NCBI GenBank assembly: GCA_026770705.1
Contig: JANJGN010000021.1
Span: 93,558,001-93,622,000, forward strand
Source of the DNA: Isurus oxyrinchus
Lineage: Eukaryota
Direction of reading: 5' to 3'
DNA length: 64,000 nucleotides
The translations under genes and the position numbers were made by a program. Below, in pieces: positions 13,227-64,000 of the stretch (position 1 is the first letter of the stretch; each line of letters begins with the position of its first letter). Under the pieces are notes generated by a model. The model saw only the letters and a list, made by a program, of their open reading frames with translations. It was not told the DNA's origin and did no database searches.

Positions 13227-13500
13227 TCAAATTTGGAATTTTCATTGGTTAATTAATGTGTTCAAATTGGTTCAGTCTTTAGGATTTTCCAATTAAACCT
13301 CAGTTCTACAACAGGGAGTTAACATGCCTTTTGTAATCTATTTGCTCCTTTTTTTTAAAAGAACTAATTCGATGATGTTGAGAAACTTCAATGTCTTCAT
13401 GGAGATCCCACAGGATATAAATGAAAGACTATGAATGTATAACCTCAGAGTTTAATTCAAAACGATTGCTGCAGCAGCAAGGGACAGATCACAGATAAGT

Positions 13501-22604: not shown

Positions 22605-23700
22605 CTAAAGCCTCCCAGGTGTCCCTGCCTCCCTGGAGTATGCCCTCTCAGCATTCTTGTGTGTGTGGTTATCCTCGGATTCACTGCTCGACTCATCATT
22701 TGCATCCGGAGCAACTGCATCTACATCTTCCTCGTCCACTGCATCCTCCCTTTCCAGCACCAGATTGTGGAGAGCGCAGCATGCAGCCACTATCACTGAC
22801 ACACGATCTGGGGGGTACTGGAGTGCGCCCCCTGAACGTTCCAGGCATCGGAAGCACATCTTGAGAAGACTGATGGTTCTCTCCACCACAGCCCTTGTGG
22901 TGCCCTGGCTCCTATTGTACCACTGCTCAGCTTCTGTTCTTGGATGGCGGAGAGGCGTCATGAGCCACCTTCTGAGGGGATAGCCCTCGTCACCCAGCAG
23001 CCATCCATCCAGTCGGGCTGGAGCACTGAAGAGCCCCGGCACCTGGGAGTGTTTGAGGATGTAGGCGTCGTGGGAGCTACCTGGGTACCTTGCACAGACT
23101 GTAGAATCAGCATCCTGTGATCACACACAATCTGCACATTCATGGAGCGGAAGCCCTTCCTGTTGACAAGGCACCGGGCTCACCTGCTGGCGCCTTGATG
23201 GCAACAAGTGTATAGTCTATAGCACCCTGGATGCAGGGGAAGCCAGCAATGGCTGCGAAGCCTCTGGCTCGCTGTGTCTGACTGGCATCATCCCAAAGGT
23301 AGTGGATGAAGGTCAATGCACACCTGAACAGAGCGTCTGTAACCTGCTTCACACAGTGTGGACAGCTGATTGGGAAACACCGCAAAGATCACCCACTGAG
23401 CCCTGGAAAGAGCTGGAGGAATAGAAGTTGAGGGCAGCTGAGACCTTTAGAGCCACTGGCATGGGGTGTCCACCCACACAGTTTGCAGAGATGTCAGGGC
23501 CAATCATCTGACAGATGTAGTTGAGAGACGGACCCTCCTTCAGCACCACACCTCAGACATATTGAGGTAGCTGCTTCGCCGCCTGTATACCCTGGCAGCA
23601 GGATAGTGGCATCTTCTGCAGCCCTTCCATCTTGGACTACCTGTCGGCCCTGCACCCCTTGTGCCTGCGCCTATCCTCCCAAAGGTGGCTCCCCTGGAGG
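22605..23700 (-). pseudogene. Harbinger DDE transposase (HARBI1-like, DDE_Tnp_4)
   Basis: Motifs [67 protein letters not shown] across frameshifts. Confidence 0.9.
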
Positions 23701-34368: not shown

Positions 34369-34517
34369 CCTCGGCCGTGAATAAGTAGCTGTCATTGTCT
34401 CTCCATTTCCTACCTTTCTTTTGTAGATGACAGCCACAATGATGAGAGCGATGAGCATCATGAAGCCTCCAAATACAATCCCTACAATAACATGAACCTG
34501 GTTGCAAGACTGCAGAT
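34369..34517 (-). pseudogene. MHC class I connecting peptide/transmembrane exon
   Basis: Acceptor (CT)nAACAG| at 34518; (D)LQSCNQVHVIVGIVFGGFMMLIALIIVAVIYKRK; donor either at 34413 (GTAGGA) or 34368 (GTGGGT); same strand, downstream of alpha1/alpha2. Confidence 0.7.
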
Positions 34518-34521
34518 CTGT

Positions 34522-34895
34522 TAGAGAGAGAGAATCAGAGAGAGAGAATTGGAGAAAGTGTAAAAGAATCACAAAGAGAGATAGAGGGAAAATCACAGAG
34601 AGGGAGAGAGAGAATGAGAGAGAAAAAATGAGAGAGAGAGAGAATCAGAGAGAGAGAATTGGGAAGAGAGTGAATCAGAGAGGGAGAGAGAGAATCAGGG
34701 AGAGAGAATCAGAGAGAGAGAATTGGAGAAAGTGTAAAAGAATCACAGAAAGAGAGAGGGAGAATCACAGAGAGGGAGAGAGAGAATGGGAAAGAAAGAG
34801 TAAGAGAGAGAGAGAATCAGAGAGGGAGAATTGGGAAGAGACAGAATCAGGGAGAGAGAGAAAATCAGAGAGAAAGAGAGAATCAGAGACAGAAT
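34522..34895. repeat. GA-rich repeat (GAGAATCAGAGAGAGAGAATTGG) with internal duplication
   Basis: 34528-34577 repeated at ~34704-34750. Confidence 0.9.
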
Positions 34896-34929
34896 CATTC
34901 TGCAAGTTTACAAAAGCTCTTCTGTAATT

Positions 34930-35430
34930 TGTTGCAGTCCTCCTCAGTATTGCCTATATCCCCAACTTGGTGCCATGCATAAAGTTAGAAATTGATTTTT
35001 TGATTCCAAAGTCCAATTCATTAATTTAAATTGTGAGCATCAGTGATCTCAGCATTGATCCGTGTGGAACACCACTCCCCACTTTCAGGCACTCTGAGCA
35101 ACCACCCCTTACTCACACTCTCTGTTTTATGTCTTGAAGTCAGCGAACAATCCATTCTGCCACTTGTTCCCTGACTGCATCCTCTGACCTTATGTATTAG
35201 TCTAATTATGAGTCATCTTACCGTTAAGGCTTTTGAAAATCCAGATTAATTACGTCTACTGCAATACCGCTGTCAACTCTCCGTAACCTCATCAAAAACA
35301 TTGGTCAAACAAGATTTTCCTTTTTGAAATCCATGCAGACCATTCATTATTGTTTCCAAATGTCCTTCTATTCTCTCCTCTTCCATAATTATTCCTACCA
35401 TTAATGTTAGGCTCACTGGTGTATAATCCC
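34930..35430 (-). mobile_element. Old CR1 RT fragment
   Basis: Reverse reads QHGFQKGKSCL..., DVINLDFQK, SGVPHGSML. Confidence 0.65.
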
Positions 35431-35483
35431 AGAATACACTGGGTTTATATGATACCCCATGTGCTGTTGGTGGAAAACCCTAT

Positions 35484-36160
35484 GGGCAAAAGCTTTACCT
35501 CAGTGAGTGGGCAGCCGTGCGTCTGACCCGCTCAAGTGTAAATTGACGCATGTTGATGCCGGGCGAGCATCCCGACGTCAACAGGCAGTCAGGCGATATT
35601 TTGGTTGGTGGGCACACACAGGAATCAGCAGCCCACCCGCTGACAATTAAAAGGACTGTTCAGGCCATTAAAGTCTTAATTCACTTATATTTCCCTCTCC
35701 CTGCCCAACTTTACAGTTGGCGGGCAGGCAAAAACACCAAGCGGCCTTTGCACTTTTTAGGAAATCTCATCCACGGGATGATGTTTCCAAAAGCAAATAA
35801 AAACAAAATAAAAATTTTAAAATTGAATTAATAACATGTCCCTGCTCATGTGACAGAGTCACATGAGGGGACATGTTTTATAACATTTTATGAGCCTTTA
35901 TTTAGTTTTCTTGAAGGCTCTTCATCTCCCTCTCTGTGCCTTAGGGAGATTTGCAAGTGCGCACCTGCGTGAAATTCGCGCTCGCACTCACCCCCACCCC
36001 ACACAGGCAGCACTGAGCGCTGCCATGCATGTTTCACACTGGGTGGGTCCTAATTGGCCTGCCAGCGTGAAATTGCAGTGCAGTCCCGATCGCGGGCGGT
36101 TGTCGGCTTCCCGATTGCCCGCCCCCACCGAGTCCACTCAACAAAGGCTCAGTTCTGCCC
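35484..36160. mobile_element. Harbinger-family MITE (~680 bp)
   Basis: Termini GGGCAAAA / TTCTGCCC, TAT/CAT flanks, central palindrome CATGTCCC..TCATGTGAC AGA GTCACATGA..GGGACATG; related to 38533-39567 and to ends of 19479-24274. Confidence 0.75.
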
Positions 36161-37194
36161 CATATGTTATGGTGGGACGATGGTCCATTCAAGAACTTGG
36201 TTTCTCTAAAGGTGGATTTCTTATCAAAAGCAACTTGCTTCTCGTAACTGGCCATACATATGTCCAAGTTGCCTGGAAGATAAACAACAGTAAAGCAAAA
36301 GAGTCAACAAGAAGTTAATTATATGTGTGAGTAGGATCCTGTGGCTCTGGTCTCAAGTATGGTTTTAGTTTTTAGTTTAGAACAAGCTTGCTGCAGGAAA
36401 CATCTCTTTCAAGCAGGATTAATTGAAATTCCATGTGTTGGCTGAAAGCATTTAAAACTCTTGTTAACTGAAGGACCCCTAACAGTGAGTTGAACTGTTG
36501 GGATAGCCAAGCTGAATATAGAGAGAGAGAGAGAGAGAGATTTCTTAGGTGCAAGACTCCAGAGCTCAACAACATTAAACTGGAGAGTTTTGACCCAAGG
36601 TGGCTACGCTTAAGACGTTAGCGACATCTGTGTTGAACTGGGAGTTTACAACCGTGGGAAGGCTGAAGGAGGTTTGAAAGGACAACTTTGCAGGAAGTAA
36701 GTGCAAGGCCTAAGAAATTGCAACCTTTATACAAACCTCTGAAACAGTACTCAACCAAGTGGTAATCTTCCAATTTTTGCTAAGTATCTGGCTTGAGTTT
36801 TGAGGTCTAAGTCAAATGGGTGTAGAAGGAAAGTTGAATTAAAATGTTTGGTTTAGAGCATAAGTAACAGTTTTCATTGTACGTCTAATATCTTTAACAT
36901 AATTGATTGTCTAAGAATGTAGTTATTTGTGTTCATGTTGTTTGATTTTCATGTAGTAAACTTTTGTTTTAAACTATGCACCTTGTGGCTTCATTCTTTC
37001 AGTAAATACCTGGGATTTCAGATTTCCAGCAAATAAAAACACTATTGGTCTCTCCTGAGATCATAACAACTGAGGGCTCTAGCGGGGATGTGAATTCACA
37101 GATTGTGATGAGTGTGCTGGGATATTGGCTAAAGTCTAGACTCACAGAGTTCATGGTAAATTTTACTATACCAAGTGAACAGCAAAGTGACTAG

Positions 37195-37295
37195 CTCTGA
37201 AGAAAAGTCATATGGACTCGAAACATTAACTCTGTCTTTCCCTCCGCAGATGCTGTCAGACCTGCTGAGTTTTTACAGCAATTTTTGTTTTTGTA
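37195..37295 (+). mobile_element. Penelope-derived short element with hammerhead-like core
   Basis: CTGAAGA-AAAGTC ATATG GACTC-GAAAC...GATGCTGTCAGACCTGCTGAGT, homologous to minus strand of 39640-39755. Confidence 0.7.
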
Positions 37296-38532
37296 ACAAA
37301 GCGACTTTGTCAATTGCTAAGACTTTTCTGAAGAGGGAAGATTTGTCTGCGAGTGATTTACAACAATGAACAAAGATGAGATTAGGAGAATTAGAGTTAA
37401 AGTCAGAATAAAAAAAACTGAGGCTAAAAAAGCAGCAATATTTGATGCAACAGTGCAGTATTTGGAATGAGAAGAAGAAATGGTTAACCCAGATCAAAAA
37501 CAGATTGAGTTGGCTAGGATTTAGTTGCACATGAAGCAGCTTGAAATAGAAAAAGAAAGGGAAATCAGGAAGCTTGAAATTGATGTGATTTACCTTCCAG
37601 ATAGTCTGGTGAAAGAAAAGGTACTGATAATTATTTATGGGTGACACAAACCTGTTCCCTTTATACAAAGTTAAGTTATGAAGTGACAGGATACATGGAG
37701 TTCTTACTGAAGGAATTGACCCTAGTTTGCCTATTGAAGTGGTTGATTTTTTTTTCAATGGAGAAATGATTTGGCAGTTGAGTTCTAAGAGAGCTGGCCG
37801 AGGTAAGAGAAACTACGATTCTGCAGGCGGGACATCTTGGATTGTACCCAGGTTGCATAGCAAAGAGGCATCAAGCTCGGAAAGTGGGACAGGATAAAGT
37901 AAATTCATCTGCAAGGCAGGATTTTTTTTTCAGGAAGTGGGATGATGATTAAAAACTCTGAAAAAAGTTAGGCTGACTTATTTAGTCAAGCATGTTTAAT
38001 TGAATCCCAGGAGGTAGACCTTGGTTTGCAGGGATGACCTCAGACAAGGGAAGAACAGAAGAAGTTCCTGAATGTTATTACGTAAAAAAAAAGATATATT
38101 AATGTGAAAATGGAGATCTCCTTAAAAAGACCTGTGGATGAGGAAGGGCTGTAGTCCATCAAATTGTTATTCCTCCTGGCTATCGCAGGGAAATTTTAAG
38201 AACTACACGAGATTCTGATGGGAAGTCATTTAGGAATAAGTAAGGCTCAAGCTCAAATAAAGAAAATGTTTGTTGGCTGGGATGTGGTTGAATTCTGCAA
38301 GACATGTCACACAGCAAATGGTTAGAAAACTCCTGCCGTTAATTAAACCAGCTCCATCGAGCTGTACATCCACTATTGCTGAAACCTTTAGCAGGGTTCT
38401 ACTGGACCCTTACCAAAATGGGGTATCAATATTTTTTAACAATAATGGATTTGTCTGCAAAGTTCCCAGAGGCCATTTACTCGAAGAAAGATTACTGCAA
38501 AAGATTGAAGGGTGACTTCAGTTTTTCACTAA

Positions 38533-39567
38533 GGGCAGAATTTTCCATTAGGTGGGCGGGCCTGACCCAATTGTGGGCGGGCGGGGAGCCGATCGCCATC
38601 AGCAATCGGGGCCACACTGCCATTTTACGTGGGTGGGCCAATTAAGGCATGCCCAGCGTGACATCTGCCAAGAAGCGCTATGTGCTCCCTGTGCAGGAGG
38701 GGGGGAATCCATAAAATCGAGAGTGCACTTTTTTGCGCATTCGCACGAAAAGCGCACATCTCCCTGAGGCTAAGTGCAGCCTCAGGGAGATTGCTTCAAC
38801 TTTTAAAAATATTAAAAATAGAGAAAAGAAAATTCCCTTACCTGTCCCCTCTTATGACAATTTTCTGTGTGACATGTCTTGCAGAATTCAACCACATCCC
38901 AGCCAACAAACATTTTCTTTATTTGAGCTTGAGCCTTACTTATTCCTAAATGACTTCCCATCAGAATCTCGTGCAGTCCTTAAAATTTCCCTGCGATAGC
39001 CAGGAGGAATAACAATTTGATGGACTACAGCCCCTTTCTCATCCACAGGTCTTTTTAAGGAGATCTCCATTTTTTCATTAAAATATGTTTTTTTACGTAA
39101 TAACATTCAGGAACTTTTTTCTGTTCTTCCCCTGTCTGAGATAATCCCTGCAAACCAGGGTCTACCTCCTGGGATTCAATTAAACATGCTTGACTAAATA
39201 AGTTGAGTTGGGACATGTTCATAATCTACAGAACAACTTTATTACAATTTTTAAAACCCTGCATGAAACTTCATCCTGCCGGTGGATGAGGTTTCATGTT
39301 TTCTCTAGTTGCCGCTGGGTCTCCTGGCCTGCTCACCAACCTTAATGTTGAACGGGCAGGTCCTTTAATTGGTTAATCGATCCTGTCGATGGTGTCAAGT
39401 GGCCTTTGACAGGTCGGTGGGCCCGCAGCTGATTTTGCTGCGCCCCCCGCCTTCCTGAATATTTAAATGGGACGGGGTGACATCGGCGGTTCTGCCCGAC
39501 TTCATCCCGAGTCATTTTACGTGTCGGCGGGCCCCACCCCCTGCTCGCCAATGACAAAATTCTGCCC
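38533..39567. mobile_element. Harbinger-family MITE carrying an inverted copy of flanking DNA
   Basis: Perfect 12-bp TIRs GGGCAGAATTTT / AAAATTCTGCCC; 38865-39203 is reverse complement of 37976-38314. Confidence 0.88.
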
Positions 39568-39614
39568 TGTGTGTCCAAATTTTGAGACAGACTGACAGAA
39601 ACATCTATATATAT

Positions 39615-40290
39615 AAAAACAAAAACAAAAAAACTGCGGATGCTGGAAATCCAAAACAAAAACAGAATTACCTGGAAATACTCAGCAGGTCTGGCAGCAT
39701 CGGCAGAGAAGAAAAGAGTTGACGTTTCGAGTCCTCATGACCCTTCGACAGAACTTGAGTTCGAGTCCAAGAAAAAGTTGAAATATAAGCTGGTTTAAGG
39801 TGTGTGTGTGGTGGGCGGAGAGATAGAGAGAGAGAGAGAGAGAGAGAAGTTGGGGGGGGGTTGGGGATGTGGTTGTATGGACAAACAAGCAGTGATAGAA
39901 GCAGATCATCAAAAGATGTCAACGACAATGGTACAATAGAACACATAGGTGTTAAAGTTAAAGTTGGTGATATTATCTAAACGAATGTGCTAATTAAGAA
40001 TGGATGGTAGGGCACCCAAGGTACAGCTCTAGTGGGGGTGTTTTTTTTTTATAATGGAAATAGATGGGAAAAGGAAAATCTTTATGATTTATTGGAAAAA
40101 AAAGGAAGGGGGAAACAGAAATGGGGTGGGGATAGGGGAGGGAGCTCACGAGCTAAAGTTGTTGAATTCAATATTCAGTCCGGAAGGCTGTAAGGTGCCT
40201 AGTCGGAAGATGAGGTGTTGTTCCTCCAGTTTGTGTTGGGCTTCACTGGAACAATGCAGCAAGCCAAGGACAGACAAGCCAAGGACAAAC
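39615..40290 (-). mobile_element. Penelope-like element 3' portion
   Basis: Reverse reads LGLLHCSSEAQHKLEEQHLIFRLGTLQPSGLNIEFNNF (GIY-YIG C-term); terminal hammerhead-like motif and (TTTTTG)n tail. Confidence 0.85.
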
Positions 40291-40830
40291 ATCTATAGTT
40301 GTTTGAGGACACCTTAAGGTTTTGTGACAGGTAATGAAAAAAACAAGCAGATAAGACAGCTGAAGAACGCACTTCTAAACCTTGGGATGAAGCACTGATT
40401 CTGTTATCTATGCAGGGTCAACCACCGAAGGCTAGATTTAGTGGGCTTATTCAATGAGTGTGTCACATGAATATGCTGAAGTGGTATTATAACTGGGAGA
40501 ATAATCAACCAATGAGTGTACTTCAGGTAGTAAGGAAGTAAGAGAGTGGATATGACCATACCTGAGAGTTCAGATGATGAGACAGACACTGAACATTTTC
40601 AAATTAAATCACCGATAAAAGTTTGTAATATATTACACCATCTTCCAGCAGAGTCTCGGGGTGACAATCAAATTGCTAAAAGAATGTGTAGAAGTAGACT
40701 AGGATGAACATTTTTAAATACACATGAAGTTGATGTGGGAAGTACTCCAGCCGTTAAACAAAACCTTATAGACTGAACTCTGAGAAATTGGCTCAAATCA
40801 GACAAGAATTCACCTTCCAGCTGAATATTA

Positions 40831-41398
40831 GAAACATAGAAAATGGGAACAGGATTAGGCCATTCAACTCTTCGAGCCTGCTCCACCATTCATTATGATC
40901 ATGGTTGATCATCCAACTCAATAGCCTGCTCCTGCTTTCTTGCCATATCCTTTGATCCCTATCAACCCAAGAGCCATATCTAACTCCTTCTTGAAAACAT
41001 ACAATGCTTTGGCCTCAGCTACTTTCTGTGGTAACAAATTCCACAGGTTCACCACTCTCTGGGTGAAAAAATTTCTCCTCATCTCAGTCCCACCACCAGT
41101 CCCACCATCCCAGGAATCAGTCTGGTAAACCTTCACTGCACTCTCTCTATATCAAGAACATCCTTCCTCAGATAAGGAGACCAAAACTACACACAATATT
41201 CCAGGTGTGGTCTCACCAAGGCCGTGTATAATGGCAGCAAGACATCCCTGTTCCTGTACTCGAATCCTCTCGCTATGAAGGCCAACATACCATTTGCTTT
41301 CTTTACCGCCTGCTGCACCTGCATGCTTACCTTTAGTGACTGGTGTACAAGGACACCCAGGTCTCATTGCACATTCCCCTCTCTCAATTTATAGCCAT
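40831..41398 (-). mobile_element. CR1 3' fragment (internally deleted) nested in Gmr1-like RT
   Basis: EMRRNFFTQRVVNLWNLLP; tail TTTCTATGTTTC; Gypsy RT contiguous either side. Confidence 0.88.
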
Positions 41399-42718
41399 GA
41401 TATAATTGAACTGAGTTGAAGCAGTTGGAGTTCAGCAGTTGTATTGGTACCAAAACCTGACGGAACTCAAATATTTTACATTGGTTATCATAACGTGAAT
41501 GCTATAACAAAAACTGATTCTTATTCTATACCATAAATTGAAGATAGTATTGATAGAATCGGAAGCTTAGAGCTTATCAGCAAGATTGACTTATTAGAAA
41601 AGAATATTGGCAAGTGACACTAACAGATCAGGTCATGGAAATCTCTGCTTTTGTAACCCCAGGCAGCCTATATAAATGTAAAGTGATGCCATCTGCAATG
41701 AAGAATGCAGCAGATACTTCTCGAAGGCTAACAAATCAAGTTATTCATTGACTGTGTTGTGTATATCACTGGTTTAATGGTCTACAGTGACACTTGGGAA
41801 GACCATGTGGAACACCTCAGTGTAATGTTCCAGAGACTACAAAAAGCTGACTTGACGATAACTTTGGTGAAAAGTGAATTTGCCAATGCCAAAATTATTT
41901 ACTTGGGGCATGTTGTGCGGCAAGGTTGAGTGCTGCCCGGAGAAGCTAACGTTCAAGTGATTATGGACTTTCCCATTCCCCAAACCAAATGAGAGATACT
42001 GCAGTTCTTCGGAATATATGGATTTTACAGGAAGTTTGTCCTGAATTTCAACATGCTAGCCACTCCATTAATAAATTCATGGAAGAAGAAAATCAAATAT
42101 GACTGGACAGAGTCTTGCTGGACTGCCTTTGCGAGATTAAAGGCTGTCTTGATAAATAGGCCTGTGTTGGACGCTCCAAATTTCAAGATGGCAACTGGTG
42201 CTGGTGATAAAGGGGTGAGAGCCGCATTGTTACAAGATCAAGATGACACCATAGAGCATCCAGTCAGTTATTTTTCAAGAAAACTTAACCCTTGTTAACA
42301 AAAGTACAATGCAGTTGGAAAGGAAGCATTAAGCCTTGCTTTGGCCCCTCAACAATTTGAAACTTTATGTTTCCAGAAATGCTGGAAAGACTGTGATCTA
42401 CAGGAGCCATAATCCATTCGTGATTTTAAGAGAAATTCCAGACTACGCTCCCCATTTGTTCCACTGGAGTCCACAACCATTTATTTTAAAACTTGCTCAC
42501 GTTGCAGGAAGGGAAAACACCATTGCAGAGGCTTTGTCCAGAGTTTAACGACTTGTTTAAATACCTCGTAGCTATATAAAGGAGGCTTCTAAATTTTATC
42601 TTATATGTCAACAGTTTTGGATGTAATCTTTGCACCTGTTTAAATGCCATGATCCTTGGGTCAAGGGCTTGAGGTCACAAGATGTTGGACATTTGAATTG
42701 TGAGTGAACTACAAGCGG

Positions 42719-42741
42719 CGGGGGGGGGGGGGGGGGGGGGG
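42719..42741. repeat. poly(G) run
   Basis: About 22 consecutive G. Confidence 0.95.
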
Positions 42742-43627
42742 AGATTATATTGTGCATCACACATAATTTGATTGCTAAAGTGTTATAATGTTAAAATGTG
42801 TAGTATTTTAAAGGGCTGTGAAAATAATCCTTATTCAGTAAGGGTTTTTTTTCTCTTGAGAGTGTTGTGTGAAAACTCAAGGGCTTTTAGAGAAAAACAA
42901 ACATATTTTATGCTGGGGTGATGGTCTTTTTAAGAATCAGGTTTCTCTATAAGCTGATTTTTTTGTAAAAATTAACTTGTTGCAAGTAACTGATCATGTG
43001 ACCAAGTTGCCTGGAAGAAAAACAGTTTAGAGTTTAAAGAGTTTAAAATTCTTGTAAACTACAGGGCTCCTAACAGGGGACTGGAATTCTTGAATGGTCA
43101 AGCTGAGAGAGAGGGTCCTGAGATGCAAGACTCCAGAGTTAAAGAACATTAGAACCATGAAAGTTCTAACCAAAGTGGTACTGTGGCCAGGTGAGGAGAC
43201 TCCTCTCTTTTCCCAATCCTCATTTGGTTGTAGCAGAGATTTTGAATTTTAAAATGATGCTGCATTGCCAATTTGGTATGTACTTGACTGTGCGCAGTTT
43301 GTAAGATTTAAGCCAGACAGCTATTCTTGAGTTAAACGTGTAAGGGGTTGGTTTTATTATGCTGAAACTAATCCAGGTAAAAGTTAAAAATGTACAAATA
43401 CACCCTACTTTTCACTAATGTACACAAACACACTTAAACTCCAAGCATGCAGAAAGAAATATAACTTTACAAAGTGCTGGATACTAACCTTGGCCAAGTT
43501 AAAGTGAAGATTAAAAAAAAGGTCAGTAGGATTTCACTGATTGTATCTGGAGGTGCTAGTTCTTAGCTGAGGTGTGTTTTTTTTCCACAGTTGCAGCTAG
43601 TATCTCAGTTTTTCTCCCAGAAACACT

Positions 43628-44480
43628 GGCCGGAATTTTCTAGCCCCACTGGTATTAGGCATCATGGCGGGCGGGTGGGAAGGAAGGGGGGAACAATATG
43701 GCGAGAAGGCCAAACATTGGTTTTACACCATTGCGAAACCAACTTGCAATCATTCGCTCCAGCTCTCAATGGTCAATGGCAGGCCCCGTTTCCCGCCTCC
43801 GCACGTTGGGAGCATCGTTTTAATACATTTCCATCTCTACTACTCGCTGGAATTATTCCCCCCTGCCCCCCCCGCGTCACATTGCCTACGTCGGCATGAC
43901 TACAAAACGGCGTGTTTCACAACTGCCTTTAAAAGGTGTGCACCTGGCAACATGAACTTCGAAGGGAATTCGGGGGTGAGCGCACACAACCCTTGTGCTG
44001 CGCTCGCGAGCATTGCTTGTAGGACATCAAGGAAGAAGAGCTGCGCATTTGCGGGGGTGGGAGCGCAGGTAAGCCCCTTTTTCCTGGCTGGCTTTCTGTG
44101 CCTGTGCCAGGGCAAGGGCTCCAGGGTGGGTCAGGTTGAAGGGGCAGTGGGGTGTGGGAAGGCAGCACAGACTGAAGGAAATACCCAAGCGCATCCCGAT
44201 GGGAAGTGGGGTTTAGTGGCCACGCACTTGGAAAAGCTTGTCTGAAGTAAGTATTCCTTCGCAGCTGAGACTGTTCAGCAGCAGCTCCGTCGATAATCTT
44301 GGAATCGGGCCTCTGATGCTTTCCTGCCCACTCAAGCAATGCAAAAGCACGAAGGTGCCACCAATTGATCCAGAACTTTTCACCCCTCGGACTCAGACTG
44401 CAAATGAATGTAGGTTTTAGGGGGCAAGAGAACAATTGGCTGACTGGGCAAGCTGTTCAATCCCTTTGTGAAAGGTGACC
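43628..44480. mobile_element. Harbinger-related element, one end only, abutting truncated MHC alpha2 exon
   Basis: Begins GGCCGGAATTTTCTAGCCCC (same TIR type), GC-rich subterminal motifs; no right TIR seen. Confidence 0.6.
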
Positions 44481-44600
44481 ATGTACAGTTCCTTGTCGAA
44501 GATGAGGATATCTTGTCCATCGAATGCGACTTTGTTGAATGCCCCCCGGTCCCAATATCCCTCAGTTCACAGCCGAGCATCAACTGCAAAGTGTGGACAC
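44481..44600 (-). pseudogene. MHC class I alpha2 exon, 5' part only, frameshifted
   Basis: Acceptor TGACAG|; GVHTLQLMLGCELRDIGT then after frameshift FNKVAFDGQDILIFDKEL; homology then stops. Confidence 0.88.
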
Positions 44601-44922
44601 CTGTCAATCATTCGCACACACACAGCCAATCAGACACAGTTCTACTTGGCGAGCCTACCTACTGTCCCACCACTCCAAAGATTAAAAGCCTGTCATACAC
44701 CTCCTGGACTAGTGGGTTATTCAACAGACCCCTTGGCAGCCCATCTATGAATTTAATGAATCAATGTCCAGCAACTCCCTATTGGCTGTTACTATTGGTT
44801 TGGGCAACAAGGTGTCAACTTTATAGCGGCCTAGCTCTAATCTACTCCTGGCTTCTCCCGAATCCCACCCAGACCCTCCGAATCCATAGGAAAAGGCCAA
44901 TCGTGGGGAGGCAAGGACTCAC

Positions 44923-45173
44923 CACCAACCAGGCCATGACAAGCGGGAAATGCATTTTAAAATCCAGCTCCAATTCCCTTGCGAGCATCCTCTTCCACTC
45001 CCAGGACTCACTCCCCTCGCTCTCCATCATCCACTGCTCCCTGGGGACCAACTCCTGCCGATTGCTGTCATATACACTAAACAGCTCCCCATCCACACAG
45101 CCGACCGCCACATACTGCGGGAAGCCAGGGATCGGAGTCATACTGGTGAAGAAAACCTGGAGAGAGTGAGAGC
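44923..45173 (-). pseudogene. MHC class I alpha1 exon (divergent/non-classical)
   Basis: TTTCAG|GC TCT CAC...; GSHSLQVFFTSMTPIPGFPQYVAVGCVDGELFSVYDSNRQELVPREQWMMESEGSESWEWKRMLARELELDFKMHFPLVMAWLV; donor GTGAGT at 44922; 251 nt is out of phase. Confidence 0.92.
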
Positions 45174-52954: not shown

Positions 52955-54520
52955 AGACTCTCAGAATTTTAACGGTACAGAAGGAGGCCATTCAGCCCAT
53001 CGTCTCTGCACCGGCTCTCCAAATAAGCATTATGACCTAGTGCCATTGCCCTGCCTTTTCCCCATACCCCTGCGCATTGTTTCTATTTAAATAATCATCT
53101 AATGCCCCCTTGAATGCCTCGATTGAACCTGCCTCCACCACACTTCCAGACAATATATTTCAGACCCAAACCACTTGCTGTGTGAAAAAGTTTTTTCTCA
53201 TGTCACATTTGCTTCTTTTGCAGATCACTTTAAATCTGTGCCCTCTCGTTCTTGATCCTTATATGAGCGGAAACAGCTTCTCCCTATCTATTCTGTCCAG
53301 CTCCCTTATGATTTTTAACATCTTTATCAAAGGTCCACTTAGCCTTCTCGCCAAGGAGAACAGTCCCAATCTTGCCAACATATCCTCATAGTTGAAGTTT
53401 TTCATCCCTGGAGCCATTCTTCTAAACCTCTTCTGCACTCTCTCTACTGTGCTCACCTCCTTCCTATAATGTGGCATCCAGAACTGTATACAATATTCCA
53501 GCTGAGGTCTAACAATTATCTTATATAAATTCAGCATAACCTCCTTGCTCTTGTACTCTCAGCCCCTGTGAATAAAGCCCAGGATACTGTATGCTTTATT
53601 AACTGCTCTCTCCACCTGTCTTGCCACCTTCAATGATCTATGCACATACACACCTAGGTCTTTCTGCCCCTGCACCCCCTTCTAAATTTCACACCTTATT
53701 TTATATTGTCTGTCCATATTCTTCCAACCAGAATGCATCACCTCACACGTCTCCACATTGAACTTCATCTGCCACCTATCTGCCCACTCCACCAACTTGT
53801 CTATGTCCTCTTGAAGTTCTACACTGTCCTCCTCACAGTTTACAGCACTCCCAAGCTCCATATCATCTGCAAACTTTGAAATTGTCCCCTGCACACCAAG
53901 ATCTAGATCATTAATATATATCAGGAAATGCAAGGGTCGCAATACCGACCCCCGGGGAATTCCACGACTAACCTTCCTCCAGCCTAAAAAATATCCATTG
54001 ACCTCTCTGCTTCCAATTTCTCAGCCAATTTTGTATCAACTTTGCTCCTGTCCCTTTTATTCCATGAGCAATAACTTTTCTCACAAGTCTGTTGTGTGGC
54101 GCTGTATCCAATATCTTTTGAAAGTCCATGTACAGCACATCAACAGCATTTTCCTTATCGATCTTTTCTGTTCAAAAAACACCAGCAAGTTAGTTAAACA
54201 CAATTTCCCCTTTAGAAATCCCTGCTGGCTTTTCATTATCAACACATCTTTTTCCATGTGACTACTAATTCTATCCTGAATAACTTTCCAGAACTTTGCC
54301 CACCAATGAAGTTAAACTGACTGGTGTGTAATTGATGGGCTTATCCTTACAAACTTTTTTGAACAAGGGCGTAATGTCTGCAATTCTCCAGTCCTCTGGC
54401 ACCATCCCTGAGTCTAGTGATGGCTAAAAGATTATGGTGAGTGCTGCTGCCATTTCCGCCCTCACTTCATTCAACATCCTAGGGTGCATTTCGTCCACTT
54501 CTGGCACCTTGTAAAATTCA
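52955..54520 (-). mobile_element. CR1 LINE 3' portion (RT + 3'UTR), related to 45670-49895
   Basis: FLIYINDLDLGVQGTISKFADD; IVRPQLEYCIQFW. Confidence 0.92.
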
Positions 54521-54557: not shown

Positions 54558-57500
54558 ACACACACCCCCAGTGACAAACCTCACACACCCCCAGTTACAA
54601 AACCCACACACACAACGACAAAACACACACATCCCTAGTAACAAACCCACACACCCTCAGTGACAAACCACACTCAGCCCCCAGTTATAAAACCCACACC
54701 CCCAGTGACAAAACCCACACACACCCTGTTACAAAACCCACACACACCCAGTGACAAACCTCACACACCCCCAGTGACAAAACCAACTCACCCAGTGACA
54801 AACACCACACACCCCCAGTGACAAACCTCACACACCCCCAGATACAAACCCCACACACCCAGTGACAAAACCTACACACACCGAGTGACAAAACCTTCAC
54901 ACACCCAGTGACAAAACCAACACACCCCCAGTGACAAAACCAACACACCCCCAGTGACAAAACCTACACACACCCAGTGACAAAACCTACACACAACCAG
55001 TGACAAAACCACACACCCCCAGTGACAAAACCACACACCCCCAGTGACAAAACCTACACACCCTCAGTGACAAAACCCACACACTCCACTGTGACAAAAA
55101 CCACACACCCACACTGAACAACCCCTCACACCATGAGAGACAAATCCCACACACACCCAGTGACAAAACCAACACACCCCCCAGTGACAAAACAAACACA
55201 GCCCCAGTGACAAAGCCTGCACACACCCAGTGACAAACTACACACACCCCCAGTGACAAAACCCAAACACTCCCCGTGACAAAACCCACACACCCACACT
55301 GAACAACCCCTCACACCACGAGAGACAAATCCCACACACACCCAGTGACAAAACCCACACACACCCAGTGACAAAACCTACACACACCCAGTGACAAACC
55401 CAACACACACCCAGTGACAAAAGCAACACACACCCAGTGACAAAAGCAATTCACTCCCAGTGACAAAACCCACACACCCACAGTGACAAAAGCAACACAC
55501 CCCCAGTGACAAAACCCATACACCCCCAGTGACAAAAGCAACACACCCCCAGTGACAAAACCCATACACCCCAGTGACAAAAGCAACACACCCCCAGTGA
55601 CAAAACCTGCACACACCCAGTGACAAAACCCACACACCCCCAGTGACAAACCCAAACACCCCAAGTGACAAACCCCACACACCCCCAGTGACAAACCCCA
55701 CACACCCAGTGACAAAACCTACACACTGCCAGTGACAAACTCCACACCCCCAGTGACAAAAAACACACACCCCCAGTGACAAAAACCACACTCCCCCAGT
55801 GACAAACCCCACACACCCCCAGTGACAAACTCCACACCCCCAGTGACATATCCCACACACCCCCAGTGACAAGCCCCACACACCCCCAGTGACAAACTCC
55901 ACACCCCCAGTGACAAGACCCACACACCCCCAGTGACAAACCCCTCACACATCCAGTGACAAAACGAATACACCCAGTGACAAACCCCACACACCCCCAG
56001 TAACAAACCCCACACACCCCTAGTGACAAACCCCACACACCCTGTGACAAACCCCACTCACACCCCAGTAACAAAACTCACACCCCCAGTGACAAAACCC
56101 ACACACCCCCAGTGACAAAACCCACACACACCCAGTGACATACCCCATACACCCCCAGTTACAAAACCAACTCACCCAGTGACAAACCCCACACACCCCC
56201 AGTTACAAAACCCACACACACCCAGTGACAAACCCCACACACCCCCAGATAAAAAACAAACTCACCCAGTGACAAACACCACACAGCCCCAGAGACAAAC
56301 ACCACACACTCCCAGTTACAAAAGCAACACACCCAGTGACAAAACCTACACACACCCAGTGACAAACCCAAACACCCCAAGTGAAAAACCCCACACACAC
56401 CTAGTGACAAACCCCACACACCCAGTGACAAAACCCACACACCCCCAGTGACAAAACCCACACACCCCCAGTGACAAAACCCACACACACCCAGTGACAA
56501 AACCCACACACCCCCAGTGACAAAACCCACACACACCCAGTGACAAAACCCACACACCCCCAGTGACAAAACCCACACACACCCAGTGACAAAACCCACA
56601 CACCCCCAGTGACAAAACCCACACACACCCAGTGACAAAACCCACACACCCCCAGTGACAAACACCACACACCCCCAGTGACAAAACCCACACACCCCCA
56701 GTGACAAACACCACACACCCCCAGTGACAAAACCCACACACCCCCAGTGACAAACACCACACTCCCCCAGTGACGAACCTCACACACCCCCAGTGACAAA
56801 TCCCACACACCCCCAGTGACAAGCCACACACACCGCCCGTGACAAACCCCTCACACACCCAGTGACAAAACGAATACACCCAGTGACAAACCCCACACAC
56901 CCCCAGTGACAAAACCCACACACACTCTGTTACAAAACCCACACACCCAGTGACAAACCTCACACACCCCCAGTGACAAAACCCACACACACTCTGTTAC
57001 AAAACCCACACACCCAGTGACAAACCTCACACACCCCCAGTGACAAAACCAACTCACCCAGTGACAAACACCACACACCCCCAGTGACAAAACCCACACA
57101 CCCTCAGATACAAACCCCACACACCCAGTGACAAAACCTACACACACCCAGTGACAAAACCAACACACCCCCAGTGACAAAACCAACACACCCCCAGTGA
57201 CAAAACCTACACACACCCAGAGACAAAACCTACAAACACCCAGTGACAAAAACCACACACCCCCAGTGACAAAACCAACACACCCCCAGTGACAAAACCA
57301 CACACCCCCAGTGACAAAACCTACACACCCAGTGACAAAACCTACACACCCTCAGTGACAAAACCCACACACTCCACTGTGACAAAAACCACACACCCAC
57401 ACTGAACAACCCCTCACACCATGAGAGACAAATCACACACACACCCAGTGACAAAACCCACACAACCCCAGTGACAAAACAACACACCCCCAGTGACAAA

Positions 57501-60500
57501 ACCTACACACACCCAGTGGCAAACCCCACACACCCCCAGTGACAAAACCAACACACACCCAGTGACAAAACCTGCAAACACCCCCAGTGACAAAACCTGC
57601 ACACACCCCCCAGAGACAAAACCTACACACACCCAGTGACAAAACCAACACACCCCCCAGTGACAAAACAAACACAGCCCCAGTGACAAAGCCTGCACAC
57701 ACCCAGTGACAAACTACACACACCCCCAGTGACAAAACCCAAACACTCCCCGTGACAAAACCCACACACCCACACTGAACAACCCCTCACACCACGAGAG
57801 ACAAATCCCACACACACCCAGTGACAAAACCCACACACACCCAGTGACAAACCCAACACACACCCAGTGACAAAAGCAACACACACCCAGTGACAAAAGC
57901 AATTCACTCCCAGTGACAAAACCCACACACCCACAGTGACAAAAGCAACACACCCCCAGTGACAAAACCCATACACCCCCAGTGACAAAAGCAACACACC
58001 CCCAGTGACAAAACCCATACACCCCAGTGACAAAAGCAACACACCCCCAGTGACAAAACCTGCACACACCCAGTGATAAAACCTACACACACCCAGTGAC
58101 AAACCCCACACACCCCCAGTGACAAACCCCACACACCCAGTGACAAAACCTACACACTCCCAGTGACAAACTCCACACCCCCAGTGACAAAAAACACACA
58201 CCCCCAGTGACAAAAACCACACTCCCCCAGTGACAAACCCCACACACCCCCAGTGACAAAACCCACACACCCAGTGACATATCCCACACACCCCCAGTGA
58301 CAAGCCCCACACACCCCCAGTGACAAACCCCTCACACATCCAGTGACAAAACGAATACACCCAGTGACAAACCCCACACACCCCCAGTAACAAACCCCAC
58401 ACACCCCTAGTGACAAACCCCACACACCCTGTGACAAACCCCACTCACACCCCAGTAACAAAACTCACACCCCCAGTGACAAAACCCACACACCCCCAGT
58501 TACAAAACCAACTCACCCAGTGACAAACACCACACACATCCAGTGACAAACCCCACACACTCCCAGTTACAAAACCCACACACCCACACTGACAAACACC
58601 ACACACCTCCAGTGACAAAACCCACACACCCCCAGTTACAAAACCCACACACACCCAGTGACAAACCCCACACACCCCCAGATAAAATACGAACTCACCC
58701 AGTGACAAACACCACACAGCCCCAGAGACAAACACCACACACTCCCAGTTACAAAAGCAACACACCCAGTGACAAAACCTAGACACACCCAGTGACAAAA
58801 CCATCACACCCCAAGTGAAAAACCCCACACACACCTAGTGACAAAACCTACACACACCTAGTGACAAAACCTACACACACCCAGTGACAAAACCCACACA
58901 CACCCAGTGACAAAACCAACACACACCCAGTGACAAAACCAACACACCCCCAGTGACAAACCCCACACACCCCCAGTGACAAAACCCACACACACCCAGT
59001 GACAAAACCCACACACCCCCAGTGACAAACACCACACACCCTCAGTGACAAACACCACACTCCCCCAGTGACGAACCTCACACACCCCCAGTGACAAACT
59101 CCACACCCCCAGTGACAAATCCCACACACCCCCAGTGACAAGCCACACACACCGCCCGTGACAAACCCCTCACACACCCAGTGACAAAACGAATACACCC
59201 AGTGACAAACCCCACACACCCCCAGTGACAAACCTCACACACCCATAGTTACAAAACCCACACACCCAGTGACAAAACTCACACATCGCTAGTAACAAAC
59301 CCCACACACCCTCAGTGACAAACCACACTCAGACCCCAGTTACAAAACCCACACCCCCAGTGTCAAAACCCACACACACTCTGTTACAAAACCCACACAC
59401 CCAGTGACAAACCTCACACACCCCCAGTTACAAAACCAACTCACCCAGTGACAAAACCAACTCACCCAGTGACAAACACCACACACCCCCAGTGACAAAA
59501 CCCACACACCCTCAGATACAAACCCCACACACCCAGTGACAAAACCTACACACACCCAGTGACAAAACCTACACACACCCAGTGACAATAGCAACACTCC
59601 CCCAGTGACAAACCCAACACACACCCAGTGACAAACCCAACACACCCCCAGTGACAAACCATCACAACCCCAGTGACAAAACCTACACACACCCAGTGAC
59701 AAAACCTACACACACCCAGTGACAAAACCAACACACCCCCAGTGACAAAACCTACACACACCCAGAGACAAAACCTACAAACACCCAGTGACAAAACCAA
59801 CACACCCCCAGTGACAAAACCAACACACCCTCAGTGACAAAACCCACACACCCCCAGTGACAAACCCCACACACACCCAGTGACAAAACCCACACACCCC
59901 CAGTGACAAACCCCACACACCCCCAGTGACAAAACCAACACACCCCCAGTGACAAATCCCACACACCCCCAGTGACAAAACCCACACACCCCCAGTGACA
60001 AAACCAACACACCCCCAGTGACAAACTACACACACCCCCAGTGACAAAACCTACACACACCCAGTGACAAAACCACACACCCCCAGTGACAAAACCACAC
60101 ACCCCCAGTGACAAAACCAACACACCCCCAGTGACAAAACCAACACACCCCCAGTGACAAAACCAACACACCCCCAGTGACAAAACCACACACCCCCAGT
60201 GACAGAACCAACACACCCCCAGTGACAAAACCAACACACCCCCAGTGACAAAACCACACACCCCCAGTGACAAAACCAACACACCCCCAGTGACAAAACC
60301 ACACACCCCCAGTGACAAAACCCACACACCCAAACTGACCAACCCCTCACACCACGAGAGACAAAACCCACACACACCCAGTGACAAAAGCAACACACCC
60401 CCAGTGACAAAACCTACACACCCCCATTGACAAACCCCACATACCCAGTCACAAAACCTACACACACCCAGTGACAAAACCCACACACACCCAGTGACAA

Positions 60501-63500
60501 TAGCAACACTCCCCCAGTGACAAAACCAACACACACCCAGTGACAAAAGCAACACACCCCCAGTGACAAAACCAACATACTCCCAGTGACAAAACCTACA
60601 TACACCCAGTGACAAACTACACACACCCCCAGTGACAAACACCAACATACCCCAGTGACTAAAGCAACACACCCCCAGTGACAAAACCTACTTACACCCA
60701 GTGACAAACTACACACACCCCCAGTGACAAAACCAACACACACCCAGTGACAAACCCCACACCCCCAGTGACAAAACCCACACACCCCCAGTGACAAAAC
60801 CTACACACCCACACTGACCAACCCCTCACACCACGAGAGACAAATCACACACACACCCAGTGACAAAAGCAACACACCCCCAGTGACAAACCCCACACAC
60901 ACCCAGTGACAAACCCAACACACCCAGTGACAAACCCCACACACCCCCAGTGACAAACCCCACACACCCCCAGTGACAAACACCACACACCCCCAGTTAC
61001 AAACCCAACTCACCCAGTGACAAACACCACACACCCACAGATACAAACCCCGCACAACCAGTGACAAAACCTTCACACCTCCAGTGACAAAACCTTCACA
61101 CACCCAGTGACAAAACCAACACACACCCAGTGACAAAACCCACACACACCCGGTGACAAACTACACACACCCTCAGTGACAAACCCCACACACTCCCCTG
61201 CGACAAAACCCAAACACCCACACTGACCAAACCCTCACACCACGAGAGACAAATCACACACACACCCAGTGACAAAAGCAACACACCCCCAGTGACAAAC
61301 CCCACACACCCACACTGACCAACCCAAACAACCCCAGTGACAAACCCCACATACCCAGTGACAAAACCTACACACACCCAGTGACAAAACCCACACACAC
61401 CCAGTGACAAAACCAACACACACCCAGTGACAAAACCCACACACACCCTCAGTGACAAACCCCACACACTCCCCTGCGACAAAACCCAAACACCCACACT
61501 GACCAACCCCTCACACCACGAGAGACAAACCCCACACACCCCCAGTGACAAAACCAACACACACCCAGTGACAAACCCAAATACCCCAAGTGACAAACCC
61601 CACACACCCCCAGTGACAAACCCCACACACCCCCAGTTACAAACCCAACTCACCCAGTGACAAACACCACACACCCACAGATACAAACCCCGCACAACCA
61701 GTGACAAAACCTTCACACCTCCAGTGACAAAACCTTCACACACCCAGTGACAAAACCAACACACACCCAGTGACAAAACCCACACACACCCGGTGACAAA
61801 CTACACACACCCTCAGTGACAAACCCCACACACTCCCCTGCGACAAAACCCAAACACCCACACTGACCAAACCCTCACACCACGAGAGACAAATCACACA
61901 CACACCCAGTGACAAAAGCAACACACCCCCAGTGACAAACCCCACACACCCACACTGACCAACCCAAACAACCCCAGTGACAAACCCCACATACCCAGTG
62001 ACAAAACCTACACACACCCAGTGACAAAACCCACACACACCCAGTGACAAAACCAACACACACCCAGTGACAAAACCCACACACACCCTCAGTGACAAAC
62101 CCCACACACTCCCCTGCGACAAAACCCAAACACCCACACTGACCAACCCCTCACACCACGAGAGACAAACCCCACACACCCCCAGTGACAAAACCAACAC
62201 ACACCCAGTGACAAACCCAAATACCCCAAGTGACAAAGCCAACACACACCTCGTGACAAAACCCACACACCCCAAGTGACAAACCCCACACACCCCCAGT
62301 GACAAAACCAACACACCCTCAGTGACAAACCCCACACACACCCAGTGACAAACACCACACCCCCAGTGACAAACCCCACACACCCCCAGTGACAAACCCC
62401 ACACACACCCAGTGACAAAACGAACACCCCCAGTGACAAAACCACACACACCCAGTGACAAACCCCACACACCCCCAGTGACAAAACCCATACACACCCA
62501 GTGAGAAACCACAAATAACCCCTGTGATAAAAACCACACATCTGCAGTGACAAGCCCCACACCTCCAGTGACAAAACCCACACATCCCCAGTGACAAACC
62601 CGACACACGGCCAGTGACAAACACCACAACCCCAATGACGAACCCCACACACACCCAGTGACAAAATCCACACCCCCAGTGAAAAATCCCACACAACCCC
62701 AGTGACAAGCCCCACACACCCACAGTGACAAACCCCACAGACCCAGTGACAAAACCTACACACACCCAGTGACAAAACCCACACACACACAGTGACAAAA
62801 CCAACACACCCCCAGTGACAAACCCCACACACACCCAGTGACAAATCCAACACAGCCCCAGTGACAAACACCACACACCGACAGTGACAAAACCACACAG
62901 CCCCAGTGACAAAATGAACACACCCCCAGTGACAAACCCACACACCCAGTGACAAAACCCACACACCACCAGTGACAAATCCAACACACCCCCAGTGACA
63001 AATCCAACACACCCCCAGTGACAAACACCACACACCCCCAGTGACAAACACCACACACCCCCAGTGACAAAACCACACACCCCCAGTGACAAGCCCCACA
63101 CACCCCCAGTGACAAACCCCACACACCCCAAGTGACATACTCCACACCCCCAGTGACAAACCCCACACACACCCAGTGACAAAATCCACACCCCCAGTGA
63201 CAAATCCCACACAACCCCAGTGACAAGCCCCACACACCCAGTCACAAAACCCACACCCCCAGTGACAAAACCTACACACACCCAGTGACAAATCCCACGC
63301 ACCCCCAATGACAAACCCCACACACACCCAGTGACAAACCCCACGCAGCCCCAGTGAGAAACCCCACGCAACCCCAGTGACAAACCCCACACACATCCAG
63401 TGACAAACCCCACAGACACCCAGTGAGAAAACCCACACACCCCCAGTGACAAAACCAACACACCCCCAGTGACAAAACCCTCACATCCCCAGTGACAAAA

Positions 63501-64000
63501 GCAACACACCCCCAGTGACAAAACCTACACACACCCAGTGACAAAACGAACACACCCCCAGTGACAAACCCAAACACCCCCAGTGACAAAACCCACACAT
63601 CCCCAGTGACAAATCCCACACACCCCCAGTGACAAACCCCACACAACCAGTGGCAAAACCTACACACACCCAGTGACAAAATCCACACACACCCAGTGAC
63701 AAAACCCACACACCCCCAGTGACAAATCCCACACACCCTCAGTAACAAACAGCACACTCCCCCAGTGACAAAACCCACACACCCCCAGTGACAATCCCCA
63801 CACCCCCAGTGACAAACCCCACACACACCCAGTGACAAAGTCCACACCCCCAGAGACAAATCCCACACACCCCCAGTGACAAACCCCACACACCCCCAGT
63901 GACAAGCCCCACACACACGCAGTGACAAACCCCACACAAACCCAGTGACAAACGAACACACCCAGTGACAAACCCCACGCACCCCCAGTGACAAACCCCA
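54558..64000. repeat. ~21-23-bp satellite (CCCAGTGACAAAACCCACACACC), >9.4 kb, extends beyond window
   Basis: Roughly 400 units with near-invariant CAGTGACAAA core; extreme C/A strand bias; higher-order duplications. Confidence 0.97.

Follow-up and report, generated by a model that had tools for sequence, protein, structure and literature searches.

Why does a satellite array beside an MHC class I locus of the shark Isurus oxyrinchus read as a ladder of 23-RSS-like V(D)J signals, and does this resemblance reflect a history with RAG or the composition of the repeat itself? We addressed this question in a window of 64,000 nucleotides (the whole stretch analysed, to which positions refer unless a contig is named), in the remainder of the array and its flanks, and in the genome at large.

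Structure and genomic setting of the array

TRF placed the start of the array at window position 54559, with a period of 23 and 416 copies up to the window end. This portion (54559..64000, + strand) is the left fifth of a CA-derived 23-bp minisatellite with the unit CCCAGTG-ACAAA(A/C)CCC-ACACAC(C/A), which runs on 36 kb beyond the window end and comprises 45.8 kb and ~2,025 units as a whole (G000:C21:93612559-93658358). Its organization is that of a minisatellite: units run head to tail at a short period, some differ in length by a dinucleotide, and duplications of a higher order recur at about 2.4-3.2 and 8.1-9.1 kb. Among the 415 units anchored in the window, the step is 23 bp in 313 of 414 cases, 21 bp in 59 and 22 bp in 23, which bears out the geometry proposed in a preliminary description of this DNA, namely a period of 23 in which each heptamer-like word precedes the following nonamer-like word by 23 bp; all five 39-mers quoted there (56444-56482, 55479-55517, 57932-57970, 62788-62826, and 55749-55787) are exact. 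Across the whole array (2028 units anchored), 1632 of 2027 steps measure 22-24 bp, 1464 of them exactly 23, in keeping with the 23 +/- 1 bp spacer of a functional 23-RSS, and 21-bp steps, which are out of register, make up 18% of all steps. A hairpin structure of the repeat was rejected (z 0.81).

Genome-wide mapping revealed a single interstitial locus on C21, the contig carrying class I genes, and not a generic subtelomeric distribution. The left end of the array adjoins a decayed LINE reverse-transcriptase-like fragment recognized from translations (53685..54500, ends approximate, - strand), so labelled for its resemblance to an RVT_1-positive ORF at 929-1759. The class I locus previously noted beside the array is represented by an alpha1 exon (44923..45173, 3' end approximate, - strand; Pfam MHC_I, E 3.7e-11; best PDB match 6lup_A, E 9.6e-16) located 9.4 kb from the array, which lies upstream of it. 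However, judged from its sequence, this gene is a fragment, evidently a pseudogene: the alpha2 exon remnant (44474..44600, - strand) shifts frame in a G run, after which homology ends, and when 264 kb were searched by tblastn, paralog alpha3 exons had no match, although alpha1 did match. The sequence around a transmembrane-like exon (34408..34518, ends approximate, - strand) shows homology to the 3' portion of the class I paralogs. A protein homologue search with the alpha1 exon found nothing. Other class I paralogs adjoin arrays that are not RSS-like.

Long arrays of four units occupy ~30% of the 264 kb examined. CA-derived sibling arrays with a CAGTGAC core have periods of 12, 22/44, and 24, and related arrays rich in CAGTGACA were found at C17:90.6 Mb, C3:3.1 Mb, and C21:18.1 Mb. 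Five of 13 fetched stretches are rich in the CAGTGACA core and eight are not, in a sample biased by the choice of siblings for their similarity to the 23-bp unit.

Composition of the heptamer- and nonamer-like words

Candidate signals were scored with a PWM restricted to the heptamer and nonamer, trained on 84 distinct RSS-like sites (<=2 mismatches) from antigen-receptor loci of the same genome. These loci were chosen via perfect RSS matches and include C11 loci of assumed antigen-receptor identity, so the model is biased to the consensus and rich in paralogs; the training sites span 19.1-30.3 bits, scored in-sample. The heptamer reads CCCAGTG in 287 of the 415 window units and CACAGTG in four. 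Among the 2028 units of the whole array, C occupies heptamer position 2 in 1887 (93%) and A in 91, and 69 units start with CAC, the consensus being CCC. By contrast, C at this position occurs in 0 of the 84 training sites, in a scan that allowed it, and 79 of the 84 start with CAC, which upholds the earlier expectation that most units should not be cut. RIC assigns minus infinity to any site without a CA start (PMC2193808). The heptamers border further repeat units and no V, D or J segment. C-to-A changes at heptamer position 2 are no commoner than at other C positions (52 vs 40, 31, 28, and 54, after collapsing duplicated contexts), and the 22-24 register is kept by 58 of 69 CAC units versus 1574 of 1958 others (p=0.54).

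The nonamer previously put forward for the unit, ACAAAACCC, is present in 78 of the 415 window units but is outnumbered array-wide by ACAAACCCC (333 vs 357 of 2028 units). Position 7 of the nonamer matches the RSS in 9% of units and position 6 in 47%; conservation at position 6 (47% A) is the lowest among the 16 positions scored, and according to PMC12711392 this position belongs to the purine-A/T-purine motif bound by RAG1. Functional nonamers are common in the array: an in vivo screen in the mouse lists seven of the eight common array nonamers looked up, six plus ACAAAACCC, among its top 1000 functional ones, where ACAAAACCC ranks fourth with an NF of 0.81 vs 0.90 for the consensus nonamer and ACAAGCCCC is absent (PMC12711392 Table S2).

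The best-looking common unit modestly beats dinucleotide-preserving shuffles, 73 of 6000 of which reach its score by PWM and 138 of 6000 by mismatch count (1-2%), as against 1 of 6000 letter shuffles. For the five commonest units, 224, 49, 372, 149, and 44 shuffles out of 3000 each reach the score. Of 6000 simulated units made of the core plus A/C, 151 attain 17.4 bits; among the 491 with period 23, 44 do so. The consensus of the C3 sibling, CACAGTG-12-ACAAACACA, scores 17.4 bits as a 12-RSS versus 17.9 for the 23-bp array, and CAC sites of at least 19.8 bits number 4 and 8 in two 10-kb stretches of that sibling versus 17 in the 45.8-kb array. Genome-wide, CCCAGTG-22/24-ACAAAAACC sites number 26, with none on C26, C242, or the C16 85.8-88.5 Mb cluster.

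Candidate cryptic 23-RSS variants

The variant CACAGTG-23-ACAAAACCC at 55479..55517 (+ strand) scores 26.1 bits by PWM. The site at 57932..57970 (+ strand) shares its 39-mer and upstream context, so the two perfect sites reported earlier, though exact, represent one mutation copied by higher-order duplication and are not independent; a third copy lies outside the window. A further variant, CACACTG-23-ACAAAACCC at 58585..58623 (+ strand, 21.9 bits), was missing from the preliminary description, and 11 of its kind occur in the whole array. CACAGTG-23-ACAAACCCC at 62788..62826 (+ strand) is weaker, its 17.9 bits lying under all 84 training sites, and the CCCAGTG-23-consensus nonamer site at 55749..55787 (+ strand; duplicate at 58180-58218) is predicted to be uncleavable for want of CAC. 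In total, 17 CAC-variant units reach at least 19.8 bits, within the real-RSS range, and may be cleavable cryptic 23-RSSs, as had been surmised for a few variants. In other registers, with CAC required, scores stay below 15 bits at spacers 11-13, 22, and 24 on the + strand and at all tested spacers on the - strand.

Near the array, no RAG-like gene, V segment, or 12-RSS partner was found. Among 12-spacer sites with CAC, the top score is 8.0 bits within the array and 11.6 in the 218-kb flank, the latter being the maximum over 264 kb, and none of the 38 perfect 12-RSSs in the genome lies on C21. V-set matches on C21 number 0 among the best 150 scored of 3319 candidates, a lower bound. The RAG1 reading frame on C10 is intact, and C10 holds the only PF12940 (RAG1-family) match in a strict first look that can miss weak matches.

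Origin and possible effects of the array

Collectively, there is a high probability that this single-locus 45.8-kb array derives from a CA microsatellite and is neutral, its RSS look being a by-product of the CAGTGACA core, a short A run, and the period; it would be an ordinary minisatellite with a few chance cryptic RSSs. The CAGTGACA core places the heptamer AGTG beside the nonamer ACA, so that with a 23-bp period every heptamer comes to lie 23 bp from the next nonamer. The 21/23-bp length variants and kb-scale duplications suggest growth through slippage and unequal exchange. Ordinary C-to-A changes would now and then create a CAC heptamer, giving rise to about 17 cryptic 23-RSSs, which RAG would probably cut if a plasmid offered them a 12-RSS partner; chromosomal use would be rare because the sites share one orientation, are all of the 23 type, and have no 12-RSS near. 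The evidence favors the chance resemblance in a C/A-rich repeat that the preliminary description had offered as an alternative.

Several observations count against the by-product reading, among them the margin of the best common unit over shuffles, the functional nonamers, and the single locus on the class I contig. CAC sites of 19.8 bits or more number 17 in the array and 0 in the 218-kb flank, three of the four exact CACAGTG-23-ACAAAACCC sites genome-wide lie in the array, and two of four core-bearing arrays are high-scoring, above a simple family null. In a second, related species, too, the array seems to be retained with an unchanged junction. A single contig covered the left junction; it comes from run X1, possibly the very sample behind the assembly. 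A search of sequencing runs listed no RNA run with the sequence, a result that does not bear on expression. In favor of the by-product reading, the CCC heptamer is shared with the second species (species B), as no variant at heptamer position 2 was listed in its three runs at a 4% threshold. Summed contig depth, which is a hint only and does not equal copy number, is ~13,000 for the repeat in X1 and 160,000-286,000 in the three species-B runs, against 14-48 for unique flank.

An accidental origin could still be combined with real RAG off-target activity, whereby CAC units are cut measurably in lymphocytes and the MHC region suffers somatic deletions or rearrangements as a result, an outcome that we regard as unlikely. 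The real-RSS score range of the 17 sites, the NF of ACAAAACCC, and the intact RAG1 are consistent with it, as are the reports that CACACTG supports plasmid recombination and that cells cut the cryptic RSSs of the mouse gamma-satellite (PMC2193808). However, the sites are all 23-type and in one orientation, 12-spacer partners are as poor as described above, the adjoining class I gene is a fragment, and high-scoring cryptic RSSs in the mouse do not recruit RAG1, off-target activity being located at active promoters and enhancers (PMC5175335). The fragile site envisaged earlier is conceivable but lacks a 12-RSS partner. It is quite improbable, too, that a conserved single-locus array in the MHC region exploits its 23-bp period to assemble ~2,000 phased, mostly uncuttable RSS mimics from half-signals and thereby serves as a decoy for RAG, or as a site of RAG-induced fragility behind somatic or germline changes in copy number beside class Ib genes.

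Retention of the array purely as an uncleavable decoy, with ~2,000 nonamers and dead CCC heptamers binding or titrating RAG or excluding nucleosomes near the MHC, is very improbable. The common functional nonamers and the dead heptamer shared with the second species would suit such a role, but the poor conservation of nonamer position 6 within the RAG1 motif and the frequent 21-bp steps would not; mouse RAG1 binding tracks chromatin marks and strong sites are depleted in CA dinucleotides (PMC5175335), which makes the RAG-binding sink of the preliminary description unlikely.

Least probable of all, and largely refuted already, is the idea that the array survives from amplification of a true RSS, or of a RAG/Transib transposon end, in the proto-MHC. 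Word-level resemblance to heptamer and nonamer and the placement of an antigen-receptor precursor in the proto-MHC (PMC12227049 and PMC10751288) can be cited for it. However, a 39-bp RSS cannot fit a 23-bp unit, and such a relic would require exact loss of the whole spacer followed by a chance 23-bp period. The present spacer is the repeat itself, which agrees with 46 real spacers, a largely paralogous set, at 3-12 (median 7) of 23 positions. A Transib/RAG relic should have CAC-starting TIRs with a 5-bp TSD, and Transib TIRs keep CAC perfectly (PMC1131882), whereas the consensus here is CCC, also in the second species, and only scattered 5-bp matches occur within 60 bp of both array ends, none at both junctions. 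That C21 has neither a RAG1-family match in the strict first look nor a V-set match among the 150 best-scored candidates also argues against this origin, as do the period and the mostly retained CAC of true RSS-derived arrays in this genome (see below).

Comparison with known systems and significance

Tandem 23-RSS ladders on C26, located behind certain V segments that we take to be NAR-TCR supporting V-delta, resemble the array in their head-to-tail 23-RSS-like units of one orientation. They differ in a period of about 58-63, in a whole RSS with a real spacer per unit, and in CAC in 30 of 32 listed units, and they start at the V exon 3' end, a setting with no counterpart in the 23-bp array; its 23-bp unit also falls short of the at least 39 bp needed for a whole RSS with a real spacer. 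A literature search, for which most subscription papers were out of reach, found no paper on the 23-bp satellite or on tandem RSS ladders.

The closest precedent is the mouse gamma (major) satellite (Cowell et al. 2003, PMC2193808), which is likewise a tandem repeat outside antigen-receptor loci with RSS-like units, a subset of sites being predicted cleavable in both. A transposon link and a harmless sink were already proposed there, and this 2003 precedent covers the basic idea. However, the gamma-satellite has a 234-bp unit with whole CAC-starting signals, makes up ~6% of the genome, and has demonstrated cutting, whereas the shark array has a 23-bp unit, a signal spread across two units, CAC in 69/2028, and a single locus. 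CA-repeat cryptic RSSs (PMC2193808 and PMC5175335) are similarly CA-derived, with CAC/ACA words mimicking RSS parts, but thanks to its GTG core and A run the array has a far better nonamer and keeps a fixed register of 23 bp. Transib/RAG transposon TIRs (PMC1131882) share the heptamer-23-nonamer spacing, but the array has no CAC consensus, is not terminal, and has yielded no inverted partner, TSD, or transposase.

If RAG did act on the array, one could use this naturally phased substrate to ask whether a high density of cryptic RSSs attracts RAG without active chromatin or a 12-RSS partner, and whether RAG shapes the shark MHC. If the array is ordinary, it would be a clear case of CA-repeat periodicity making RSS look-alikes, and would call for care when RSSs are annotated in shark genomes rich in repeats.

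Anatomy and genomic location of the satellite

According to tandem-repeat analysis of the window (G000:C21:93558001-93622000), the satellite begins at position 54559 and continues to the window end with a period of 23; the whole array ends on the right at C21:93658358, spanning 45.8 kb and ~2,025 copies with 0 N, and includes higher-order duplications. Anchoring on the core yielded 415 units in the window, of which 287 carry CCCAGTG as the heptamer-like word and 4 carry CACAGTG; the step between units equals 23 bp in 313 of 414 cases. All five 39-mers quoted in the preliminary description as tandem 23-RSS-like signals proved exact in the window sequence. Because the heptamer-like and nonamer-like words are adjacent in the unit, a heptamer is separated from the next nonamer by exactly one period, and the repeat itself serves as the 23-bp "spacer". 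The satellite is single-locus in the assembly, as every genome-wide match to two dimer patterns (135/135 and 469/469) lies inside the array.

Comparison with the genuine RSSs of the genome

Perfect RSSs of this genome are concentrated on contigs C26, C16 and C242 (100 of 213 matches listed). From the loci around them, 84 distinct reference sites with at most two mismatches were collected, of which 79 start with CAC and none carries C at heptamer position 2. The matrix (PWM) built from these sites scores them at 19.1-30.3 bits (an in-sample range), CCCAGTG/ACAAAACCC at 17.9 bits and CCCAGTG/ACAAACCCC at 9.7 bits. Over 2028 units, agreement with the RSS consensus is weak at heptamer 2 (4.5%), nonamer 7 (9%) and nonamer 6 (47%). 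Appreciable cleavage needs the first three heptamer bases (PMC10536018), sites without a CA start receive a RIC of minus infinity (PMC2193808), and the essential positions are described as heptamer 1-3 and nonamer 5-6 (PMC1131882). The CCC consensus and rare heptamer 2 match support the earlier expectation that most units would not be cut, and a functional RSS array is rejected given this consensus and the absence of C at heptamer 2 among the real sites.

Derivation by amplification of an RSS, an earlier proposal, is not supported. Real tandem RSS arrays exist here: seven V exons on C26 (32.8-38.5 Mb; assembly stretches L080:6120-6591, L081:5075-5360, L082:5483-5756, L083:6980-7331, L084:6772-7045, L085:7566-7717 and L094:7578-7674) each have 2-8 complete 23-RSSs behind them, usually at intervals of 58-63 bp, and a CAC start is seen in 30 of 32 listed units. 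These ladders retain spacer, CAC and V-exon link, whereas the satellite has none of the three, its spacer showing a median identity of 7/23 bases to 46 real spacers; an RSS-derived ladder is thus rejected. The V exons end in YYCALSRRT-like sequence, several are broken, and a tandem ladder occurs in 7/7 such loci examined. One of them matched only antibody V domains in PDB, and we take them to be "NAR-TCR supporting V-delta"; this true RSS ladder is more interesting than the satellite. A Transib/RAG terminus is very unlikely, the consensus starting with CCC.

Probable chance resemblance and sibling arrays

Shuffled controls reproduced the resemblance in part: the PWM score of the best common unit was reached by 1/6000 letter shuffles and 73/6000 dinucleotide shuffles, and its mismatch count was equalled by 138/6000 dinucleotide shuffles. 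For the five commonest units, 224, 49, 372, 149 and 44 of 3000 shuffles reached the unit score. Simulated units combining the CAGTGACA core with random A/C filler scored at least 17.4 bits in 151/6000 cases, and in 44/491 at period 23.

Thirteen stretches in other places were reached through weaker BLAST matches; five of them, belonging to three arrays, have a high content of the CAGTGACA core, and perfect CACAGTG heptamers in them number in the hundreds per 10 kb. The C3 array (L043, L044, L121; G000:C3:3.079-3.114 Mb; period 24, varying over 20-30) is ~35 kb long and CA-derived, with perfect CACAGTG in most units. Its consensus, CACAGTG-12-ACAAACACA (17.4 bits), occurs in a minority of units and its best site is CACAGTG-12-ACAGAAACA (22.0 bits), making it a 12-type counterpart of the satellite with intact CAC. 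Two C3 stretches contain 4 and 8 CAC sites scoring 19.8 bits or more per 10 kb, versus 3.7 in the satellite. The arrays at L037 and L038 (G000:C17:90.62-90.65 Mb; period 22/44) and L046:1537-7828 (G000:C21:18.13 Mb; period 12) combine perfect heptamers with poor nonamers. As the siblings were chosen by similarity, they show a family prone to RSS look-alikes rather than an unbiased rate. An apparent interspersed repeat family (G000:C2:108584483, C4:1622712, C10:901000, C12:98612430, C17:632127, C20:57554637; L060:1501-1539) holds CCCAGTG-23-ACAAAAACC with a related spacer, perfect CACAGTG in one copy, and is apparently another chance look-alike.

Genomic surroundings

On the minus strand, window ~44923-45173 contains the alpha1 exon of an MHC class I gene (Pfam MHC_I, E 3.7e-11; best PDB match 6lup_A), which shares 54-61% identity with paralogs located at 93.9 and 99.6-100.1 Mb. 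Mapping confined the satellite to one locus on C21, which also carries 11/12 alpha1 matches, in agreement with the MHC region (PMC10751288). The claimed adjacency holds, but the neighbour (34408-45173, minus strand) reads as a pseudogene fragment with alpha1, a truncated alpha2 and a TM-like exon; in the assembly, the alpha2 frame is lost within a run of G before homology ends, and paralog alpha3 exons gave 0 matches in 264 kb, where alpha1 was detected. Four long arrays with unrelated units occupy ~30% of this 264 kb, and further class I paralogs adjoin long arrays without RSS likeness, so the proximity is unremarkable. Of the 150 V-set matches with the best scores (150 of 3319 candidates scored), none falls on C21, and the same holds for 38 perfect 12-RSSs; RAG1 is on C10.

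Elsewhere in the window, a DDE_Tnp_4 transposase fragment (22605-23120, minus strand; Pfam E 2.3e-24), presumably Harbinger-type, is not RAG-like. An 18-bp minisatellite family comprises a 7-kb array whose end falls inside the window and two small copies, and upstream lie two arrays of 21/42-bp units, 8 and 17 kb long. Together these minisatellites occupy window 2-744, 3050-3335 and 12591-13227 and G000:C21:93478259-93503953 and 93551619-93558744.

Selection, possible RAG use and origin

Variant units do approach the consensus, as first described: 17 CAC-starting sites of at least 19.8 bits occur in the array versus 0 in 218 kb of flank, all 23-type and co-oriented in the chromosome. There is no visible sign of selection toward an RSS. 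When each duplicated context is counted once, C>A changes number 52 at heptamer 2, compared with 40, 31, 28 and 54 for other positions bearing C; 58/69 CAC units are in register versus 1574/1958 others (p=0.54); and a single event, since copied, accounts for the three best-known CACAGTG-23-ACAAAACCC sites. The satellite is present in contigs from three runs of a related species. A single contig of 100 bp spans its right junction there, and contigs of the flank differ at 5 of 182 bases, suggesting that the site is likely orthologous. No heptamer position 2 variant reached the 4% listing threshold in these runs, so CCC is likely common to both species.

The nonamers are good by analogy with mouse: in an in vivo 23-RSS screen (PMC12711392), ACAAAACCC ranks 4 of the top 1000 (NF 0.81; consensus 0.90), which also includes ACAAAACCT, ACAAATCCC, ACAAACACC, ACAAAACCA, ACAAAAGCA and ACAAACCCC, with ACAAGCCCC and the C3 sibling nonamer ACAAACACA absent. 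Placed on a plasmid together with a 12-RSS, the 17 CAC sites would probably be cut; in the 264 kb around the array, the highest-scoring CAC 12-spacer site reaches 11.6 bits. PMC5175335 describes high-scoring mouse cryptic RSSs without RAG1 recruitment above background and off-target cutting at promoters and enhancers, and shark RAG may behave likewise.

The satellite resembles mouse gamma-satellite, a repeat with some cryptic 23-RSSs by accident (PMC2193808), but differs in that most of its units lack CAC and its cryptic sites are predicted ones. It probably arose from CA-microsatellite DNA and grew by slippage and unequal exchange; in the shark it is likely neutral, and RAG would use it rarely.
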